A stretch of DNA of 64,000 bases from a virus (taxonomy: Duplodnaviria; Heunggongvirae; Uroviricota; Caudoviricetes). The DNA lies in IMG/VR virus record IMGVR_UViG_2585427757_000006, one strand, 5' to 3'. The position numbers and the translations under genes are program-made. The notes under the pieces were generated by a model, which did no database searches, was not told the origin of the DNA, and worked only from the letters and a program-made list of their open reading frames with translations. The stretch's first letter is position 1; each line of letters opens with the position of its first letter. Shown here one piece after another: positions 31,916 to 47,466 of this stretch.

Positions 31916-32040
31916 ACCAACTCCTAGCTAACAGATGAAAGTATTCTTACAAAAAACTAAGTATGTATCTACTTATCATTTTAGGCGCAATAGTTCCCTA
32001 TACGAAGATGCCGGGCTTATAGTCTGCCCGGCATTCACCA

Positions 32041-32455
32041 TTAATGAGCTACAGCCTCACTGTTGCACATCTTTCTGTAGACCTGCTTATAACGCTGTAA
32101 GTCATGAGGATCATTAGGTGCCAACGACTTCGATAGGATTTTGTATACCACCCCTTTCGAAAACATGCCCTTTGGCTTCATTTCGAGTTCAACAACATAT
32201 GAGTGATAGCCCACGTATGCACCAAAGCCCATTTTTGGCGTTCAATTCTCCGCACACAAAGCCTGTCACACTCCCATCGTCATGATCAGTCCTGACAAAC
32301 TTATCTTTCCTAAACATCACCGACGTGGGATCTTTCATATCATCCGCAATTGCTTGTTGGCCCAGAGCAATAGCCTTCTCGTCTGTAGGCTTACACCCCA
32401 CTAAAGCAAACAAAGACAATAAAGCTCCTGTTAAAATCAGCTTATTTTTGCTCAT
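32041..32455 (-). pseudogene. lipoprotein gene apparently split by a frameshift at an A5 run near 32225
   Basis: N-terminal ORF 32189-32455 has lipobox LVGC; a second ORF (32041-32232) in another frame continues from the same point. Confidence 0.35.
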
Positions 32456-32688
32456 GTTGGCTTCCCTTTATTTATATTTATCGCAGGTATTAGTTAATCA
32501 AAACACGAGCAGTGCCACAATAATTAAATGGCGTACTATTTCTTATGGTTATTAGTTTCCTAGTAACTTTACCGACCATAAACTAAATCAACAAAGCTGA
32601 CATATTAACTAAATTTAAGTACCCTTTTTCGCACACTTGACGCTTGCCGCGTCTAAACTGTTCATCCTATATCAACAGAACAAAAAAT

Positions 32689-33834
32689 ATGAAATACATA
32701 AAATCTTCATCGTTGCTGGCATTAACTTTGCTTTTTAGCTCTGGATTCGTTAACGCAGACAATAAACAAACGCTGATAGAAGCCGCTACCGCAGGGGATA
32801 CCGCAGCACAAAGTGAGTTAGGGACAAATTATTTTGATGGTATCAATGGTTTTGATAAGGATGTAGTTGAGGCCAAGAAGTGGATTGATCTCGCTGCAGA
32901 AAAGGGAGACAAAGTAGCATATTATGCACTTGGGGTTATGTACACATTTGGCGAGGGTGTAGATAAAGACCTAAATAAAGCTGTTGAGTACTACAAACTT
33001 GCGGGGGATGCTCGTGAAGGTAGAGCCTACAACAATCTTGGTGCTATTTATCAAAAGGGGTTGCTTGGTAAAGTAGATCATGCACTCGCCATTAAATACT
33101 TCAAACTAGCCTCTGATGCCGGGTATGTTAAAGCAACTTCAGTTCTTGGGGCGTATTACCAATATGGTAAAGGCGTTAAAAAGAATTATAAAAAGGCTTT
33201 TACTTATTACAAAAAGGCGGCAGACCAAGGCAGTTCAGAAGCTATGATAGGATTAGGAATACTATACGATGATGGGTTAGGCGTTAAACGCAATGATGCA
33301 GAAGCAGTTAAGTGGTATAAAAAGGCAGCGGAACTTGGAAACGCCGACGCCATAACCAATCTTGGCATTATGTATGAGAATGGGGAAGGTGTAAAAAAGG
33401 ACTATAAAAAAGCAGCCGACCTTTATCAGACTGCTTGCGATAAAGGAGAAAAAAGAGGCTGCGATTACATTGCAGAACTGAAAGAAAGCGGCAAATATCG
33501 AGCGCCGGCTTCCAAAGCCAAAACAAAATCCGCCACCCAGCGACTTATTGCTAAATCCATTGATAAGGGCGTTAACGCTACATTTACCTGGCAGGGTGAT
33601 GATGCTACCTTCACCGCTAATGATGGCAAAGTTGACTGCACATTCCTGAAGGATTTTTCAGAGAAAGGAGGCAATCTGGCTACCTCGTTTGTTTGCACAG
33701 ATAACGTTCAAATCATCCTGAAGCAATTCAGAGATACCAAAAATGCCTACCTCGCGGTAATGACTGACAACTTCAATACTGAAGTTAAATCATTTTCGGT
33801 CAATGTGTATGTGACTAATACTGGTTCAAACTAA
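32689..33834 (+). CDS. secreted Sel1-like repeat protein (signal peptide plus ~8 Sel1 repeats plus ~100-aa C-terminal domain)
   Basis: Signal peptide MKYIKSSSLLALTLLFSSGFVNA; repeated A..WYKKAA..G...A...LG.MY..G.GV.KD units; plus strand, opposite to neighbours. Confidence 0.8.
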   Translation: MKYIKSSSLLALTLLFSSGFVNADNKQTLIEAATAGDTAAQSELGTNYFDGINGFDKDVVEAKKWIDLAAEKGDKVAYYALGVMYTFGEGVDKDLNKAVEYYKLAGDAREGRAYNNLGAIYQKGLLGKVDHALAIKYFKLASDAGYVKATSVLGAYYQYGKGVKKNYKKAFTYYKKAADQGSSEAMIGLGILYDDGLGVKRNDAEAVKWYKKAAELGNADAITNLGIMYENGEGVKKDYKKAADLYQTACDKGEKRGCDYIAELKESGKYRAPASKAKTKSATQRLIAKSIDKGVNATFTWQGDDATFTANDGKVDCTFLKDFSEKGGNLATSFVCTDNVQIILKQFRDTKNAYLAVMTDNFNTEVKSFSVNVYVTNTGSN

Positions 33835-35007
33835 TGCAGCTATGCCTTTTACCTTGCTTAAAAGTTCAAGCTGTCGTGAGTAAGGTTTTGCGCAATAGTA
33901 GGCTTTGATAATCTGCCCGGGGGTCGCATCGCCGGGGTCGAGTCCTTCCTCGCCCAAACATGCAATTTTCACATTAAGACCAATACTGCTCAGTCGCCTG
34001 GCTGCGGCCATAGTGTTGCGTATAGCCTGCTTTTCACTATCCCACATCATAATCACATTACGTAGCCCACGCGCCTTGAGCGTCAGGAACGCGCCCAGCT
34101 GATCTTCTGCATCCTGAGTGGTGTTACCAGATAGATGCATCCCGAACGTTCCTATTGGTTCCACGTAATCACGTAATGTTTCTTCGTCAAAAATAGCTCG
34201 TTTGACCCCCATAACATCGAACGCCCCCTCACAGACAACTACAGTCTGTTTGCCGACTGCATTATGGCCGTTGTAGAGAAACCTACCTGAAGCTGGAAGC
34301 TGCATAGGAAAGAGGTAGCGACGTTCTGCTGCACCGGTAATGTCACGCCCCTGGAAGGTCTTCATCACGCCATCCAGATCGTAAACCGGTATCAGGATGC
34401 GCATATCAAACACCTGCCCTTTGACCTGGTCTGTGTACGGATCGACGTATGCGTGCTTGCCTTCGACGCAGTAACGCAGATCAAAGTATTTGGCCAGATC
34501 CGGGGAGATATGGCGCTCCACCAGATAATCAGGAAGACGACCGTCAATGGGGAGTTCGTAATGTCGAGGGAGAGCTACTGGCCCTTCGAGTTCAACCTTG
34601 CTGGCCAGCACGACCTCTTCCTTCTTCGGCGCCCATCCTTGTGAGATCAGCGCGTTCTGCACATATTCCTCGAACTGTCGTCGTGATTTACCGCTGTAGT
34701 GCTTGAGGAAGACCAGCTTATTGAACTGAATCTCTTCGGGATGATCACCAGCAAAGCATTTGCCGACGCCACTGGTCAGATTGAAATATACCTTCCAGTT
34801 GGAGCTGCCACATACCGGACACTCCTTGATATTCACTTCACGACCGCGAGCACTCACGCCTCCACGTCGATAAACGATACCTTCAGTGTCCAACCATTGT
34901 TCAAAATCTAATTCGGTAATTAGCTCTTTCAGCTCGCTCACGATAATTCCACTTTTAATAGGCAATATTGTGACCAACCTAAATGTTGATATAATATAAA
35001 GGTTCAT
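33826..35007 (-). CDS. DNA primase (zinc-binding plus TOPRIM domain)
   Basis: Zinc motif CPVCGSSNWKVYFNLTSGVGKCFAGDH; TOPRIM VVVCEGAFDVMG; start uncertain (ATG 35007 or GTG ~34944; ORF track 35079). Confidence 0.8.
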   Translation of the reverse strand: MNLYIISTFRLVTILPIKSGIIVSELKELITELDFEQWLDTEGIVYRRGGVSARGREVNIKECPVCGSSNWKVYFNLTSGVGKCFAGDHPEEIQFNKLVFLKHYSGKSRRQFEEYVQNALISQGWAPKKEEVVLASKVELEGPVALPRHYELPIDGRLPDYLVERHISPDLAKYFDLRYCVEGKHAYVDPYTDQVKGQVFDMRILIPVYDLDGVMKTFQGRDITGAAERRYLFPMQLPASGRFLYNGHNAVGKQTVVVCEGAFDVMGVKRAIFDEETLRDYVEPIGTFGMHLSGNTTQDAEDQLGAFLTLKARGLRNVIMMWDSEKQAIRNTMAAARRLSSIGLNVKIACLGEEGLDPGDATPGQIIKAYYCAKPYSRQLELLSKVKGIAALV

Positions 35008-35088
35008 GTGTTTTTCTTTTGTGGTTTGGCAAAAGAAAAGTTGTTTCACCAATGAATCAAGCGTGGAGGTGTTCTCCACGCTTATTTT

Positions 35089-36429
35089 TTAGGTAACGTC
35101 TAAGATTCGCTCAATGAAGCGCATTTGTTCGAGGTTTTGTTTAACGCGAATGCTGACCCCTCCCTGCTGGTTACGAGAACCAGCAAAGTAGAGACGAGCC
35201 TCTCCTTTCGCTTCTTCTTCTTCGGTTTTGTTGATCGTTATTACCAGGTCAGCAATACGTACTTTTTCGATGTTGTCGGCGGCGTGCATCATTGTGGCAA
35301 CTTCTGACGCGCCACCTTCACGGTTTGTCTGCGATGCCGTGATCCCAGCAACGTTATGCTTGTCATAAAGAGCACGTAAATCGGTGTAGATACTACGAAT
35401 GTTAGCGCGATCATCACGAAGGTCATAACTGGCACGCATCAAATCTGCGTAGTCGACAACAACCATATCAGGCACCATGCCATTGGCTTTCATGCTGTTA
35501 AGCATACGGTCCAGATCTGCCGGTGACATACTTCCTGACGGACGCTCAACAACCCACAAACTACCAATCCCCTTCGTGGCTCCCAACTCTGCCAACTTAC
35601 GATGAACCTCATCGCGCCGTTCAACCAGCTTGGACATTTCCGTCTCCGACAATCTTGCATCAAAACGGTCGGATAAAATGGTGGTGTGAACCTCCAGCGA
35701 GAGATACAGAACATTGTAGCCAGCAAGCGTTGCGTTTATGGAAAACTCACCCATTGCGGTCGATTTACCGGATTTAGCGAACCCCATGAAGAGCACCATT
35801 TCACGCTTCGCCCAGCCTTTTTGGTACAGCAACCTATCGAGCAGAGGGAGTCCAGTTGTAATGCTGTTTGGCACATACTCCTCTGAAGCCTCATATTCAC
35901 GCGCTTTCAATCGCTCACTTGCGGAGGTGTAGTAGTCATAGATTCCGGTCGCTTCGTTCGATCCAATCTGCTGAACCTTGGCCATGATTGCCATCGCCCC
36001 CTGAAAGTCGCCCTTCTCTTTCAGTTCAGCAGCCTTAATCAGAGCATCATCAAACGCTACGCTTTTTGCGAAGGTTGATACCTGGTCAACCATGTACGAG
36101 GTATCGGACAATTTTTCTGCAAGGATGCGCTTAAACGCAGCAACAACATCGGCGAATAGTTCCTCACGGATGGTCTTATCGCGTTTAGCACGTTTAAGCA
36201 TATCCAGAATCGCAGATGAAGAAGGCGCGCTCTTGTACATACGGTAATAGCCCGAAACCATATTAACCAATATGGCATTGGCCGCATTGGCAAATTGGCT
36301 AGGCACAACCAGATCTCCCGCACGAGTAAGAAACTCGTGATCACGACAAAAATATGCCGTCAGTCTGTTCTGGAAATCTTCATCAAACTCTTCGGACAGC
36401 CCGCGTCCTGTATGGCAAAGTTCGGTCAT
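35089..36429 (-). CDS. replicative DNA helicase (DnaB-like)
   Basis: RecA-fold C-terminal domain with Walker A MGFAKSGKSTAMG and Walker B region MVVVDYADLM. Confidence 0.85.
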   Translation of the reverse strand: MTELCHTGRGLSEEFDEDFQNRLTAYFCRDHEFLTRAGDLVVPSQFANAANAILVNMVSGYYRMYKSAPSSSAILDMLKRAKRDKTIREELFADVVAAFKRILAEKLSDTSYMVDQVSTFAKSVAFDDALIKAAELKEKGDFQGAMAIMAKVQQIGSNEATGIYDYYTSASERLKAREYEASEEYVPNSITTGLPLLDRLLYQKGWAKREMVLFMGFAKSGKSTAMGEFSINATLAGYNVLYLSLEVHTTILSDRFDARLSETEMSKLVERRDEVHRKLAELGATKGIGSLWVVERPSGSMSPADLDRMLNSMKANGMVPDMVVVDYADLMRASYDLRDDRANIRSIYTDLRALYDKHNVAGITASQTNREGGASEVATMMHAADNIEKVRIADLVITINKTEEEEAKGEARLYFAGSRNQQGGVSIRVKQNLEQMRFIERILDVT

Positions 36430-43044: not shown

Positions 43045-46000
43045 TTATTCTTTAGGTGAATTTAACTTCGTTTCAAGCTCCTCAACCCTTTTGGTCAATT
43101 GCTGAATATGATGAATGAGTGGTACAACCAAACGCTCATACATCACTCCTTCAGCGACCATACCATTTGAGGAAATATCTTCTGGAGAATCATTATTTGT
43201 TGGTTCACGCCAATGGACATATTGCGGGGCAATCTCACCAACCTCTTCAGCAATAAGGCCGTAATACCCCCAATCCTTTCGGTCACCTCGACAAATTGAA
43301 CGATACCAAACAGGTCTTAATGACAAAAGTTCATCAGCATATCGATCTTGTAATGTTTCAATATCCTTTTTATAGCGCCTTGAAGACGTTGAACGCCAAA
43401 CTGTATTGATACCTGGGTTTGGATCAATGTACATATTGGCACCGCTAGTAGTTGTGCCAATATCCCATATAGCAAACCCTCCACTACCGCCTGATTTGAC
43501 AACCAGTGTTTCAGCAACAATATCCAGGTTGCCACTATAGCCTGTCAGTGATGATCTGCTTGCATAGGAGCTTAGAAGGTTTGCTACCTCTGTTTTCGTG
43601 TAAGCATTAAGGTTAGCCGCAGTCAAAGTTATATCGGCAGAGCCATCAAACGCCACACCAGCAATTTTCCTTGCTGTCTGCAATTTTGTGGCGGTTGCGG
43701 CATTACCAGTAGTGTTCTGATTACCAGTTGTATTCACACCAGGGATTGAATCCTTAGCGGTATATACCTGCGCCCACGCTGACCATGCTGCACCTGTGTT
43801 ATCTCTTCGTGAGCGAATGAAAACTGGCGCATGTGCACCGCTCGTACCACTCCAGCCAATAAGCAACTCGCCCTCACCAGCAGCACTCGCACCTTTCATG
43901 TGCAATACGTTGCCATACGTGGTCGGGTAGCTATTGTTGTACGCCTCATACATTTGAATGCCAGCAGTGCCTTGAGTAGAGCCGCTTAACGCCGTAACTC
44001 GGCCACGAGATACCAATGTATTAATGTTGATATCGCCTGAACCATCAAACTTAACACCATTGATGTTTCTCGCTGTTTGCAACTTCGTAGCTGTTGAAGC
44101 ATTACCGTTCAAACTACCATTTACGCCACCAGTCACATTTAGTCCATTACCAATTGATACAGCACCGCTGGTATTATTAATTGTAATCGGTCGCAAACCG
44201 TTCCATGAACCTAATGTGTCTCCTGATGCTGTTAGCAGGAAATATGTGTTCGCCCCATCATTACGGATAAAGAACCCATAGTTACCGTAAGCAATGCGGA
44301 AACCATTTGCATATTTTGAAACGATCTCACCAGAAGACGTTACCCCCCCAGATAATGTGCCACCTGAAAGCGGTAATGCTCCTACATCAGAAGCTGTTGG
44401 TTTGTTTCTGGTGTTATAAGAACGACGCCAGCCTGGCGCATAATCACTTCCATTGTACACATAAATAAATTCCGCATTATTAACACCACCATGACCCGAT
44501 GTTGTTGTCGTTGTAACACGAATAGTGTAATGGCTTGTTGCCTTATTACTAAACACCTCAATCACGGAACCAGATAGATCGATCCTACCGCAACCAGTGT
44601 CGTCTATATAATTATTGTTGGCGTAAGCCCATGAGCACCGTGCAATCCAATATTTGTTTGAAAATGCACCCTGATTATTTAGCCACGTTATAAACTGAGC
44701 AGTCGTAAATGCTGTTCCGTTACCACTATTTAACCATCCGGCGGCAGCGGTTGGTGCGTTTATATCAGCCGGCTGAGGCATAAATCCAGTCGTGTAAACC
44801 TGCTCCCAACCACTTTCAAAACCATAGCCATCTCTTGAGGAACGGTAGAACAGACCACCATTTTTATAGTGAGCTTTAATTTGAAGCGTACGGCAACTAC
44901 CTACACCGGTATAAAAGTTGGCAAGAATATAACTAGCGCCTGCTCTAGTTACATTGTAAGCACCAGATTCAGCATTCCACGGCACGCCACCATCAGCATC
45001 CGCATATGTATCCGTTGCCCTTCTGGCAAAAGCAGCCACATGCGCGGCGGTTAAAGTGATATCTTTGGAACCATCAAACTCAACACCAGAAACCCGTCTT
45101 GGCGTTTGCAGCTTTGTTGCTGTTAATGCATTACCGTTCAGACTTGCGGACAGTTTGGTTCCAATAACCAGTTCGCCGGTTGCGTTATCAATAGCAAACG
45201 GTCTTAATGTATTCCAGCCACCATAAACATCACCTTGATTGGTAAGCAGCAGGTAAGTTTTAGCGCCATCATTACGCCATAATGCCCCATACTCCCCACC
45301 TATCATTCGAATCTGATTACCACCACGCGCTACAATTTCGTCTGTGGCAAAAAGTTTTTTGCACGACAAGTTATCGTTAACGATTAACGAATGAGACTCA
45401 TAAAAACCACGCCCACTCTTAAAATCAAGGATAACGTCCGCCGCGATACATTCAATCGCCGGATTTGTTGCCCCAAACTTATAGGTCGTATCATTAACAA
45501 CGAGATCCGCACCAGGTGCGGATATTGACAGGCCATCTTCAATAAACGCAAAAACAGGGAAAGCAGCACCATCAACATAGAACACAGAGCGCAAATCATC
45601 GCCCTTATTACTCATCATTATTGAGTGGATGGCTCGTTCATTGTTTTGATATTGCCAGAACATTCCATAAGCATAACGCCCCCTGTCAGTCCAGCCACCA
45701 GGCATAACAAATCCGTTAAACTCGCAGTTATTCATCGGATCGCCTGCGGTTCGCGTTGCCGTGGTGATAATGACCCTTGATGCCAGTTCGCTTACTGAGC
45801 CAGCAGAACGCATAACAACAACAGGGTAATATTTTCCAGATGTTGCACCTGCAGGAGCGTTAACCCGCACATAACGCATACCACGCTTATCAGCAAAGTC
45901 TGTTTTACTGACCGCGTTAATGTTGTTCAGGAAGCGTCCCTTATCGGGTATATCAGCGCCGTTCTGGTCTTTCTGCAGACGTTTCTCTGCATTGTCATAG

Positions 46001-47466
46001 GCTGATTTTACTGCCTTTGGCGTTGCCGCCAGCGTCTCAGACGTACTGTTGGTCGCACTGCTGAGCTGTACTATCCCCTTTTTCGTCGTACTTGCATCCT
46101 CAAGCGCCACGGCGGATGCAATATCCTCTGCCCGTTTTGCCGCTGTCTCGGCGCGCGTTGCCGCGGATTCCGCCGTACTTTTGCTCTGTGCTGCCGCCGT
46201 CGCACTGCCAGCTGCCTCTGTCGCCTTCGTGGATGCTGTCGTGGCGCTGCCCTTCGCTGCGGACGCTTGTCTGGTCGCCTCATCTTTTGAAGCAGACGCC
46301 GATGATGCCGATGACGCTGCCGAACTGGCGGACGATGCGGCTGCCGTTTTTGAGGATTCTGCACGGGTTTCCGACGCTTTCGCGTTCGTTTCGGATGTCT
46401 TCGCTGCGGAAGCAGACCTCGCTGCTGCGCTGGCCTGTTCAGTGGCTTCGCCAGCCTTCGTTGTGGCTGTTGAAGCAGACGATGCGGCACTTTCTGCCGA
46501 TTTTCCGGCGGCGGTGGCACTGGCTGAGGCCTGCCCGGCACTTGTTGACGCGGCACTTGCAGACGACGCAGCCGCTGTTTTTGAGCCTGCCGCAGCCGAG
46601 GCGCTCTGTCCCGCTGCCGTTTCAGAAGACCTGGCGTTCGTCTCGGACGTTTTTGCCGCCTTCGCGGAATTTCCTGCCGCCGTTGCCGAGGAAGCGGCAT
46701 TACTGGCGCTCGAGGCTGCGTTCGTTTCTGATGATTTCGCTGCCTCTTTTGAGGCCGCCGCATCCCGGGCTGAGGTGGCAGCTTCTGACGCCTTCGTGGT
46801 CGCGGTGGATGCAGAAGTGGCTGCAGATTTTTGTGACGCTGCAGCATTCGTTTCAGATTTTTTCGCAGCAGTTGCACTCGCACTTGCGGCACTTTGTGAG
46901 GATGCCGCAGCGGATGCACTTTGAGACGCTTGAGAGGCTTTTTCTCCAGCGGCATTGGCGCTTTTTGCTGCTGCGGCAGCACTGGCCGCCGCCTCACGAG
47001 CTTTGTCGCCAGCAGCATCAATCGCGTCAGTGTTATTTTTATACCACTCAACGTTTTCGTTGTGCTCGTTGACGATCTGCATTAGCGGCTTAACGGTCAC
47101 TTCTGTACCGTCTTCACGCTCGATTGTCACCTCATCCAGCGCAGTCAACCAACTGCGTATGGACTTGGAATCAGCCGACATACGCGACATTAGCGCAGTA
47201 AAACGCGCGCTAAACTGTGTTAAGTCGCCTTCATAGGTCGTAATGATTCGGCACGGAACCTCAGACTGAGTTTCGCCGGTATAAGGTTCTGAGAGAACAA
47301 TATTCGTATCGCTTATTACGCGCTTGATCTCATACAGCTTATTGTCGGGGCCAATGACGATCATCCCCGGCAACACACCATTAGCTGTTACGTTCCAGGC
47401 TGTCCCTGCCCCAACCAGAGTATTGCTACCATGTGTAAATGTGATAGTACCTTCCCTGTACCACAT
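43045..47466 (-). CDS. long tail fibre protein (1473 aa) with Ala/Ser-rich repeat region, three tail-fibre repeat units and a C-terminal self-cleaving chaperone (peptidase S74-like) domain
   Basis: ~320-aa low-complexity SETNA-type repeats; three ...TATKLQT.R...GV.FDGS.DI... units; C-terminal SSRRYKKDI and YYGLIAEEVGEIAPQYV. Confidence 0.85.
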   Translation of the reverse strand: MWYREGTITFTHGSNTLVGAGTAWNVTANGVLPGMIVIGPDNKLYEIKRVISDTNIVLSEPYTGETQSEVPCRIITTYEGDLTQFSARFTALMSRMSADSKSIRSWLTALDEVTIEREDGTEVTVKPLMQIVNEHNENVEWYKNNTDAIDAAGDKAREAAASAAAAAKSANAAGEKASQASQSASAAASSQSAASASATAAKKSETNAAASQKSAATSASTATTKASEAATSARDAAASKEAAKSSETNAASSASNAASSATAAGNSAKAAKTSETNARSSETAAGQSASAAAGSKTAAASSASAASTSAGQASASATAAGKSAESAASSASTATTKAGEATEQASAAARSASAAKTSETNAKASETRAESSKTAAASSASSAASSASSASASKDEATRQASAAKGSATTASTKATEAAGSATAAAQSKSTAESAATRAETAAKRAEDIASAVALEDASTTKKGIVQLSSATNSTSETLAATPKAVKSAYDNAEKRLQKDQNGADIPDKGRFLNNINAVSKTDFADKRGMRYVRVNAPAGATSGKYYPVVVMRSAGSVSELASRVIITTATRTAGDPMNNCEFNGFVMPGGWTDRGRYAYGMFWQYQNNERAIHSIMMSNKGDDLRSVFYVDGAAFPVFAFIEDGLSISAPGADLVVNDTTYKFGATNPAIECIAADVILDFKSGRGFYESHSLIVNDNLSCKKLFATDEIVARGGNQIRMIGGEYGALWRNDGAKTYLLLTNQGDVYGGWNTLRPFAIDNATGELVIGTKLSASLNGNALTATKLQTPRRVSGVEFDGSKDITLTAAHVAAFARRATDTYADADGGVPWNAESGAYNVTRAGASYILANFYTGVGSCRTLQIKAHYKNGGLFYRSSRDGYGFESGWEQVYTTGFMPQPADINAPTAAAGWLNSGNGTAFTTAQFITWLNNQGAFSNKYWIARCSWAYANNNYIDDTGCGRIDLSGSVIEVFSNKATSHYTIRVTTTTTSGHGGVNNAEFIYVYNGSDYAPGWRRSYNTRNKPTASDVGALPLSGGTLSGGVTSSGEIVSKYANGFRIAYGNYGFFIRNDGANTYFLLTASGDTLGSWNGLRPITINNTSGAVSIGNGLNVTGGVNGSLNGNASTATKLQTARNINGVKFDGSGDININTLVSRGRVTALSGSTQGTAGIQMYEAYNNSYPTTYGNVLHMKGASAAGEGELLIGWSGTSGAHAPVFIRSRRDNTGAAWSAWAQVYTAKDSIPGVNTTGNQNTTGNAATATKLQTARKIAGVAFDGSADITLTAANLNAYTKTEVANLLSSYASRSSLTGYSGNLDIVAETLVVKSGGSGGFAIWDIGTTTSGANMYIDPNPGINTVWRSTSSRRYKKDIETLQDRYADELLSLRPVWYRSICRGDRKDWGYYGLIAEEVGEIAPQYVHWREPTNNDSPEDISSNGMVAEGVMYERLVVPLIHHIQQLTKRVEELETKLNSPKE

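Follow-up and report, generated by a model that had tools for sequence, protein, structure and literature searches.

A Sel1-repeat protein with an orphan β-barrel domain as probable mobile cargo of SSU5-like phage-plasmids

EsiB, HcpC (1ouv), LceB (8sxq) and LpnE (6deh) are exported bacterial proteins that have in common the α/α solenoid built from Sel1-like repeats. Some Sel1 proteins serve as type VI secretion system (T6SS) immunity proteins and act by binding the incoming effector, none of them with a barrel domain; Sel1E of Klebsiella pneumoniae is such a Sel1-type T6SS immunity protein, directed against VgrG4 (PMC7108748). In phages, lone genes for exported proteins that lie between operons or beside tail-fibre genes are represented by the morons bor and lom of λ, cor of N15, φ80 and T1, and sp of T4. 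Here, a 64,000-nucleotide stretch of viral DNA (IMG/VR record IMGVR_UViG_2585427757_000006; hereafter the window, to which positions refer) was analysed with respect to a gene at 32689-33834 on the plus strand. Its product, termed the Sel1-barrel protein, combines a Sel1-like solenoid with a C-terminal β-barrel domain. The gene was found to be present or absent at an exact junction among related replicons, and its base composition is deviant. Based on these comparisons, it is classed as a self-contained accessory ("moron"-type) gene, which resembles the classical morons in being dispensable to the phage and deviant in base composition and is unrelated to them in sequence and fold.

The protein was already known as a database entry for a hypothetical tetratricopeptide repeat (TPR)/Sel1 protein: it matches PHROG 8741, a family without assigned function, end to end, and its RefSeq name is "tetratricopeptide repeat protein" (WP_032252488.1). 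The repeat family to which it belongs is very large, it is one of the uncharacterised members, and no specific prediction follows from the Sel1 part by itself. The analysis newly recognises the hotspot in which the gene lies, its mobility from phage to phage and its orphan, highly constrained β-barrel.

Architecture of the Sel1-barrel protein and its structural relatives

The Sel1-barrel gene is an intact open reading frame (ORF) of 381 codons. The ATG at 32689 is the RefSeq start of the 100%-identical WP_032252488.1, encoded in the Escherichia coli plasmid pLAO7, and all homologues align from there. The longest frame runs from 32644 to 33834 (+); its upstream TTG start at 32644 was rejected, since the homologues and RefSeq begin at the ATG and the signal peptide follows directly after it. 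Four parts of the protein were deduced:

32689..32757 (+), Sec signal peptide, residues 1-23, with predicted cleavage between VNA and D
32758..33498 (+), Sel1-like repeat solenoid, residues 24-270, six repeats plus caps, with C250-x7-C258 in the last repeat
33499..33540 (+), Lys/Ala/Ser-rich flexible linker, residues 271-284, poorly conserved, with a predicted local distance difference test score (pLDDT) <50 in part
33541..33816 (+), orphan 8-stranded β-barrel domain, residues 285-376 (92 amino acid residues), with invariant C317 and C336

The N-terminus reads MKYIKSSSLLALTLLFSSGFVNA, followed after the predicted cleavage site by DNK. It carries K2 and K5, an 11-residue hydrophobic core (Kyte-Doolittle ~1.9) and V-N-A at positions -3 to -1, and neither a lipobox Cys nor twin arginines were seen on inspection. 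These features, which are kept in all full-length homologues, point to a Sec-type signal peptide. A search with the Pfam Sel1 model (PF08238) returned E=9.8e-55 and 181.5 bits (cutoff 30.7), and 6 repeats passed. In the AlphaFold model of the full-length protein (pLDDT 81.7), residues 1-22 are disordered and residues 23-267 are folded into 14 helices (pLDDT >95) that correspond to six Sel1 repeats together with N- and C-terminal capping helices (~7 hairpins). When the C-terminal domain was modelled alone with 11 homologues, an up-and-down 8-stranded barrel was obtained (pLDDT 87.6; predicted template modelling score 0.78).

The first-pass annotation had described a secreted protein with a signal peptide, about eight Sel1 repeats and a C-terminal domain of roughly 100 residues. 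The signal peptide agrees with the features listed above, the Sel1 assignment holds in Pfam, and the C-terminal domain was found at residues ~285-376 with its eight β-strands; the number of repeats is corrected to six, the 14 modelled helices including the caps. The term "secreted" was too strong, given that a Sec signal with a signal peptidase I site would deliver the protein to the periplasm only.

Four cysteines are conserved, as two close pairs (C250/C258 and C317/C336). The single C-x7-C pair recalls the Hcp proteins; it occurs once, in the last repeat, and not in every repeat as the Hcp subfamily would require. Against NCBIfam, only MerG, MotX, AlgK and ExoR were matched, all through their repeats and all below threshold. 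By Foldseek, the Sel1 part was matched to 4bwr, 6ok3, 8sxq and 1ouv at E≤1e-14; after EsiB, the matches were Oxalobacter Sel1 proteins, LceB, HcpC and LpnE. EsiB consists of 11 repeats and a helical tail, whereas in the Sel1-barrel protein, which is carried by temperate phages, six repeats are followed by a flexible linker and by a β-barrel that was seen in none of the solved Sel1 proteins. The Pseudomonas aeruginosa T6SS immunity proteins PA5086/PA5087 (6lch/5jkp) also match in Sel1 fold, with E ~1e-6 and an identity of ~20%.

The barrel is an orphan in sequence. With phmmer against 1.84 billion cluster representatives, eight proteins were retrieved, one of which was a spurious short match to Ig-like repeats, and a profile search added no members to this set. 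No Pfam match was obtained at E≤10 for the 11 family members searched, no sequence relative was found in the PDB, and no solved structure covers the barrel. By fold comparison, the scores were 9.8 for DUF4251 (4gdz; 19% identity), 8.8 for DUF1842 (8t0b), 8.3 for both the T6SS immunity protein BtaiB (9jdd_B) and the Cap15 barrel, 8.0-8.1 for PliC (3oe3/4mir), 7.4 for MliC/YdhA (2f09), 7.2 for PhiA (7dpy) and 6.1 for ACP (6gq4). Outer-membrane barrels and avidins score much alike, and these comparisons therefore identify a fold class and no family. DUF4251 (Bacteroides eggerthii) and DUF1842 are uncharacterised domains, show no sequence match and belong to another phylum and architecture. The PliC/MliC lysozyme inhibitors (PF09864) are like the phage domain in having 8 strands in about 80-100 residues. 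PliC/MliC, PhiA and ACP are small periplasmic inhibitors built as 8-stranded β-barrels; no relationship in sequence to these or to BtaiB was detected, and in the phage protein, the barrel is joined to a Sel1 array. In a comparison with predicted viral structures, small phage barrel proteins matched best, one of them annotated as a putative lysozyme inhibitor.

A cargo site separating the primase gene from the following replication operon

In sequence identity, the region of the window reaches 99.4% with pLAO7 and 95-99% with about forty further ~110-kb E. coli plasmids. The ~395 related plasmids come from Escherichia, Enterobacter, Salmonella, Citrobacter, Shigella and Klebsiella, and the primase is 90% identical to that of phage Cyrano and 82% to that of SSU5. 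Because of these plasmid relatives and primase matches, the window is assigned to an E. coli SSU5-like phage-plasmid. Such phage-plasmids are common in clinical and animal Enterobacterales (~400 in PLSDB) and are increasingly seen as carriers of accessory traits. The features of the site and of its surroundings are as follows:

31977..33841, two-gene cargo module (lipoprotein and Sel1-barrel genes); in blastn against Cyrano, homology stops at 31976 and restarts at 33842
31958..31975, left-junction palindrome TAAGTA-N6-TACTTA, immediately upstream of the hyp258-ligase operon; shared insertion point
32042..32455 (-), small lipoprotein gene (phrog_2320, lipobox LVGC), 137 amino acid residues in pLAO7 and 88 here
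32456..32688, divergent intergenic region, AT-rich (33.9% GC)
32597..32625 (+), promoter-like block CTGACA-17 nt-TACCCT, ~64 nt upstream of the ATG, the sole strongly conserved upstream block
33826..33834, convergent overlap of 9 bp between the Sel1-barrel stop and the primase stop, with no terminator between the genes
33826..35079 (-), DNA primase gene, given as context by its longest ORF, the last five codons lying within the cargo module

The module occupies 1,865 bp in the window, and 30 bp are found between the same flanks in the otherwise collinear phage Cyrano/pLF82. Across these flanks, the distance is 2106-2112 bp in most E. coli relatives versus 3941 bp in the window; the empty form of the junction is thus the commonest state among them. 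In SSU5, the same left junction is followed by an unrelated plus-strand gene, SSU5_041, of 321 amino acid residues. Since the junction is empty in Cyrano/pLF82 and holds another gene in SSU5, the site between the primase gene and the next operon is a recurrent cargo hotspot. SSU5_041 (L002 5994-6959, +) is another uncharacterised occupant of it, in which neither a signal peptide nor a family match (NCBIfam, PADLOC) was found. The window, Cyrano, SSU5 and the Enterobacter phage-plasmid all keep the palindrome at the left junction. This palindrome may serve the hyp258-ligase operon as an operator or promoter element, or else be a landmark of recombination.

Among the ~395 SSU5-like plasmids, ~53 carry the full module and 81 (about a fifth) a full-length homologue of the Sel1-barrel gene; pLAO7 and pECOH89 are among the carriers. 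The gene was present in 65 of 5426 complete E. coli genomes (~1%), plasmid-borne every time. Its neighbours, all on the minus strand, are the genes for the primase, a DnaB-like helicase (35089-36429) and an ATP-dependent ligase (29282-30604). According to the pLAO7 annotation, 18 of the 22 genes of the region are on the minus strand, and the four on the plus strand are the Sel1-barrel gene, an orphan of 29.6% GC and a toxin-antitoxin pair. The GC content of the Sel1-barrel gene is 41.6% (37% at third codon positions, GC3), compared with 46.2% for the window and a GC3 of ~51% for the primase, helicase and ligase genes. This places it at the 10th percentile among same-size windows, a genuine difference of modest size. 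The earlier observations of a plus-strand gene amid minus-strand replication genes and of a lower GC content were accordingly confirmed, the latter as a modest effect. The proposal that the gene is cargo was also upheld, by its presence or absence at an exact junction, its carriage by a minority of SSU5-like plasmids and its location in accessory slots of unrelated temperate phages.

The lipoprotein gene of the module was rejected as an obligate partner of the Sel1-barrel gene, as neither the Enterobacter and Citrobacter phage-plasmids nor the prophage contexts contain it. The Sel1-barrel gene is therefore the retained unit, and the lipoprotein gene is an independent second cargo. Apart from a single extra G near 32230, which shifts the frame and gives the 88-residue product, the lipoprotein gene is 100% identical to its pLAO7 counterpart; it is either a pseudogene or the result of a sequencing error. 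PADLOC gave no real match for the lipoprotein or the flanking hypothetical proteins. Just 3' of the lipoprotein stop on the minus strand, a hairpin (GCCGGGC-N9-GCCCGGC, 32010-32032) without a U-tract was observed, which may be a terminator or an RNA-stabilising element of this gene.

Upstream of the Sel1-barrel gene, the block CTGACA-17-TA(A/C)CCT is kept in seven contexts (four E. coli alleles, the Enterobacter and Citrobacter phage-plasmids and the Pseudenterobacter chromosome) despite the diverged surrounding DNA. A strict consensus scan called no promoter upstream of the gene, including the block at 32597-32625. The conserved block is nevertheless plausible, from its conservation, as a weak σ70 promoter travelling with the gene, and it is the one hint towards the lysogenic conversion proposed in the first-pass annotation. 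A non-conserved TTGACG at 32637 was also considered as a promoter and was set aside for lack of a usable -10 element.

Every homologue found falls within Enterobacterales. In the Enterobacter and Citrobacter phage-plasmids, a 54%-identical, seven-repeat Sel1 gene occupies the same site, and the 9-bp overlap with the primase stop is kept. The barrel was detected in 5 of 185,579 species-representative genomes (Escherichia whittamii, Pantoea sp., two Leclercia and Pseudenterobacter timonensis) and in 24 IMG/VR contigs, namely 20 SSU5-like ones, three Leclercia-type lambdoid phages and one myovirus-like contig. In the myovirus-like contig, the homologue lies between the tail tube and downstream tail genes, and in the lambdoid prophages, it follows GpJ and the tail-fibre genes at the prophage end. 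The Pseudenterobacter homologue is located in a contact-dependent growth inhibition (CDI) toxin island, among CdiA-CT fragments and orphan toxin/immunity modules, and the Pantoea homologue on a megaplasmid. On the E. whittamii chromosome (L017 7038-8942), an intact 419-residue copy was found together with a truncated primase fragment and an insertion sequence transposase remnant, between the trp/ompW/yci genes and tonB. This locus is a chromosome-captured fragment of a phage-plasmid, in which the cargo gene alone is intact. Taken by their genomic contexts, these homologues indicate that the gene has moved among several temperate-phage lineages and chromosomal islands of Enterobacterales.

One lambdoid prophage also encodes a second Sel1 protein ~0.8 kb downstream of the Sel1-barrel homologue (L006 10047-10982, +). 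Its 311 amino acid residues comprise four Sel1 repeats, a Cys-rich motif and, at the C-terminus, a hydrophobic segment; a signal peptide is lacking.

The two halves of the protein differ in their rate of change. The invariant columns of the homologue alignment lie nearly all within residues 285-373, including C317 and C336; N296, W301, N311, D316, N339, Q341, K345, Y354 and E365 are likewise invariant. Identity of the barrel to that of plant-associated Pantoea is 77%, and Leclercia and Pseudenterobacter also have the domain. The ratio of nonsynonymous to synonymous substitution rates (dN/dS, Nei-Gojobori) was estimated at 0.12-0.30 in the Sel1 array, compared with 0.00-0.05 in the barrel, values that point to purifying selection on the gene. 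In the allele of the E. coli plasmid p22AR0322A (L015 1727-2980, +), a seven-repeat Sel1 array of 67% identity is joined to a barrel of 99% identity; from this mosaic, it follows that the Sel1 array is exchanged by recombination within the gene.

Possible function in the lysogen envelope

A possible role, which we tentatively favour, is that of a periplasmic binder or inhibitor that guards the envelope of the lysogen. According to this reading, a weak σ70-like promoter of its own would drive the gene in the plasmid-prophage state, against the direction of the lytic replication genes, and the protein would pass into the periplasm, where DsbA would oxidise it (C250-C258 and C317-C336), and be retained in the cell envelope. 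There it would bind or inhibit its target stoichiometrically, the invariant barrel engaging a conserved enterobacterial envelope component or enzyme class and the fast-diversifying, recombining Sel1 array providing variable protein recognition. As a result, the lysogen envelope might be protected from superinfecting phage or from peptidoglycan- or membrane-targeting toxins (T6SS and CDI effectors), and the effect would not be on an animal host. A protective role in the envelope is favoured by analogy, because both halves of the protein resemble known periplasmic immunity or inhibitor classes, because the 77% identity of the Pantoea barrel points to a bacterial target, because a variable, recombining Sel1 array suits the recognition of changing partners, and because the gene behaves as a single mobile unit.

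Several findings weigh against this role. The link to PliC/MliC inhibitors was not recovered in sequence: no Pfam match was obtained at E≤10, the SxSGAxY and YxxxTKG motifs are absent, and hhalign of the barrel against a hand-entered sequence of the MliC protein YdhA gave a probability of 0.1%. No effector gene adjoins the Sel1-barrel gene in the phage-plasmid neighbourhood, and with the PADLOC defence models, only a spurious 39-residue match to PtuA was obtained for the protein, none passing alone. The selection detected is purifying, and no positive selection is visible. For expression, the promoter-like block has a poor -10 element, the Shine-Dalgarno sequence at the gene is weak, and no plus-strand terminator was found for it by consensus scan. 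A literature search (SSU5, Sel1/tetratricopeptide, prophage morons, superinfection exclusion, EnhC) returned no paper mentioning the gene. Finally, the best solved match of the Sel1 part is EsiB/c5321 (4bwr), with 37% identity over 246 columns and a phmmer E-value of 2.4e-66, and EsiB of uropathogenic E. coli is surface-exposed and binds secretory immunoglobulin A (PMC3735183).

The resemblance to EsiB speaks for a role in host interaction or immune evasion, along the lines of the first-pass annotation, in which a surface or outer-membrane vesicle (OMV) protein would bind immunoglobulins through its Sel1 array, like EsiB/ImbA, and aid the lysogen in animals. The further solved matches HcpC, LceB and LpnE are from pathogens, an EsiB-like protein encoded on an Acinetobacter baumannii plasmid binds immunoglobulins G and A and drives virulence (PMC13524772), and the carrier strains were isolated from human, dog, cattle, pig and chicken. 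This role is nonetheless considered unlikely. The similarity of the Sel1 array is largely repeat consensus, the architecture differs from that of EsiB, and a Sec signal alone was seen, without lipobox, autotransporter or secretion partner. Moreover, the most constrained part of the protein is the barrel, which also occurs in Leclercia and Pseudenterobacter, and its conservation in plant-associated Pantoea makes a target in bacteria more plausible than one in mammals.

A conserved bacterial partner, which the strongly conserved barrel suggests, would also suit a non-defensive modulator of the envelope, that is, a periplasmic adaptor or regulator altering stress responses, OMV production or cell-wall turnover. 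Proteins of this kind include ExoR, which sequesters a sensor, NlpI and LbcA, which steer a protease or peptidoglycan hydrolase, and EnhC, which inhibits a lytic transglycosylase. The Sec features and the Sel1 array are consistent with such a role, as are the weak, sub-cutoff matches to ExoR, MotX, AlgK and MerG; these matches, however, fall far under their cutoffs (34 versus 450 bits for ExoR), no conserved partner gene accompanies the gene across its contexts, and a mosaic, fast-changing Sel1 array fits poorly with a modulator, which we regard as improbable. A role in the phage life cycle (lysis regulation, antisense transcription into the primase gene that aids replication, or a virion-associated protein) could be read from the position inside the replication module and from the primase overlap kept in the Enterobacter and Citrobacter phage-plasmids. 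It is very unlikely, given that ~80% of SSU5-like plasmids are without the gene, including the functional phages SSU5 and Cyrano, that an exported protein is unable to act on cytoplasmic replication, and that quite different modules host the gene in other phages.

To return to the favoured protective binder, a more far-reaching and rather doubtful form of it can be put forward, in which the Sel1-barrel protein is the first of a new class of phage-borne periplasmic protection factors: the invariant barrel would dock on or inhibit a conserved envelope target and the recombining array, variable in repeat number, would recognise changing invaders. That these invaders are phage tail or ejection proteins and T6SS or CDI toxins is equally speculative. 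Such a factor would explain the independent uptake of the gene by unrelated temperate phages and by islands of Enterobacterales. If envelope protection or a host benefit proved true, the gene would provide a new lysogenic-conversion function and the first role for an undescribed β-barrel domain.

Other features of the window

Three further features were observed outside the module. At 26074-26982 on the plus strand, an ORF of 302 amino acid residues (29.6% GC) runs against the strand of its neighbours, beside a glutaredoxin gene and a tRNA cluster. No match to Pfam or PADLOC was found for it, and it gives the impression of another cargo gene, foreign to a greater degree than the first. The cluster (27161-27718, -) comprises four tRNA genes, Ser-TGA, Thr-TGT, Tyr-GTA and Asn-GTT; at the equivalent place, Cyrano has tRNAs for Ser, Thr and Asn, and in the SSU5 stretch examined, which ends ~1.4 kb beyond, only that for Asn was present. 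At 43045-47466 (-), a tail-fibre-like protein of 1473 amino acid residues is encoded, with a long, low-complexity repeat rich in Ala, Ser and Thr, and this repeat accounts for the 60.7% GC and the strong AT-skew spike at 46-47 kb.

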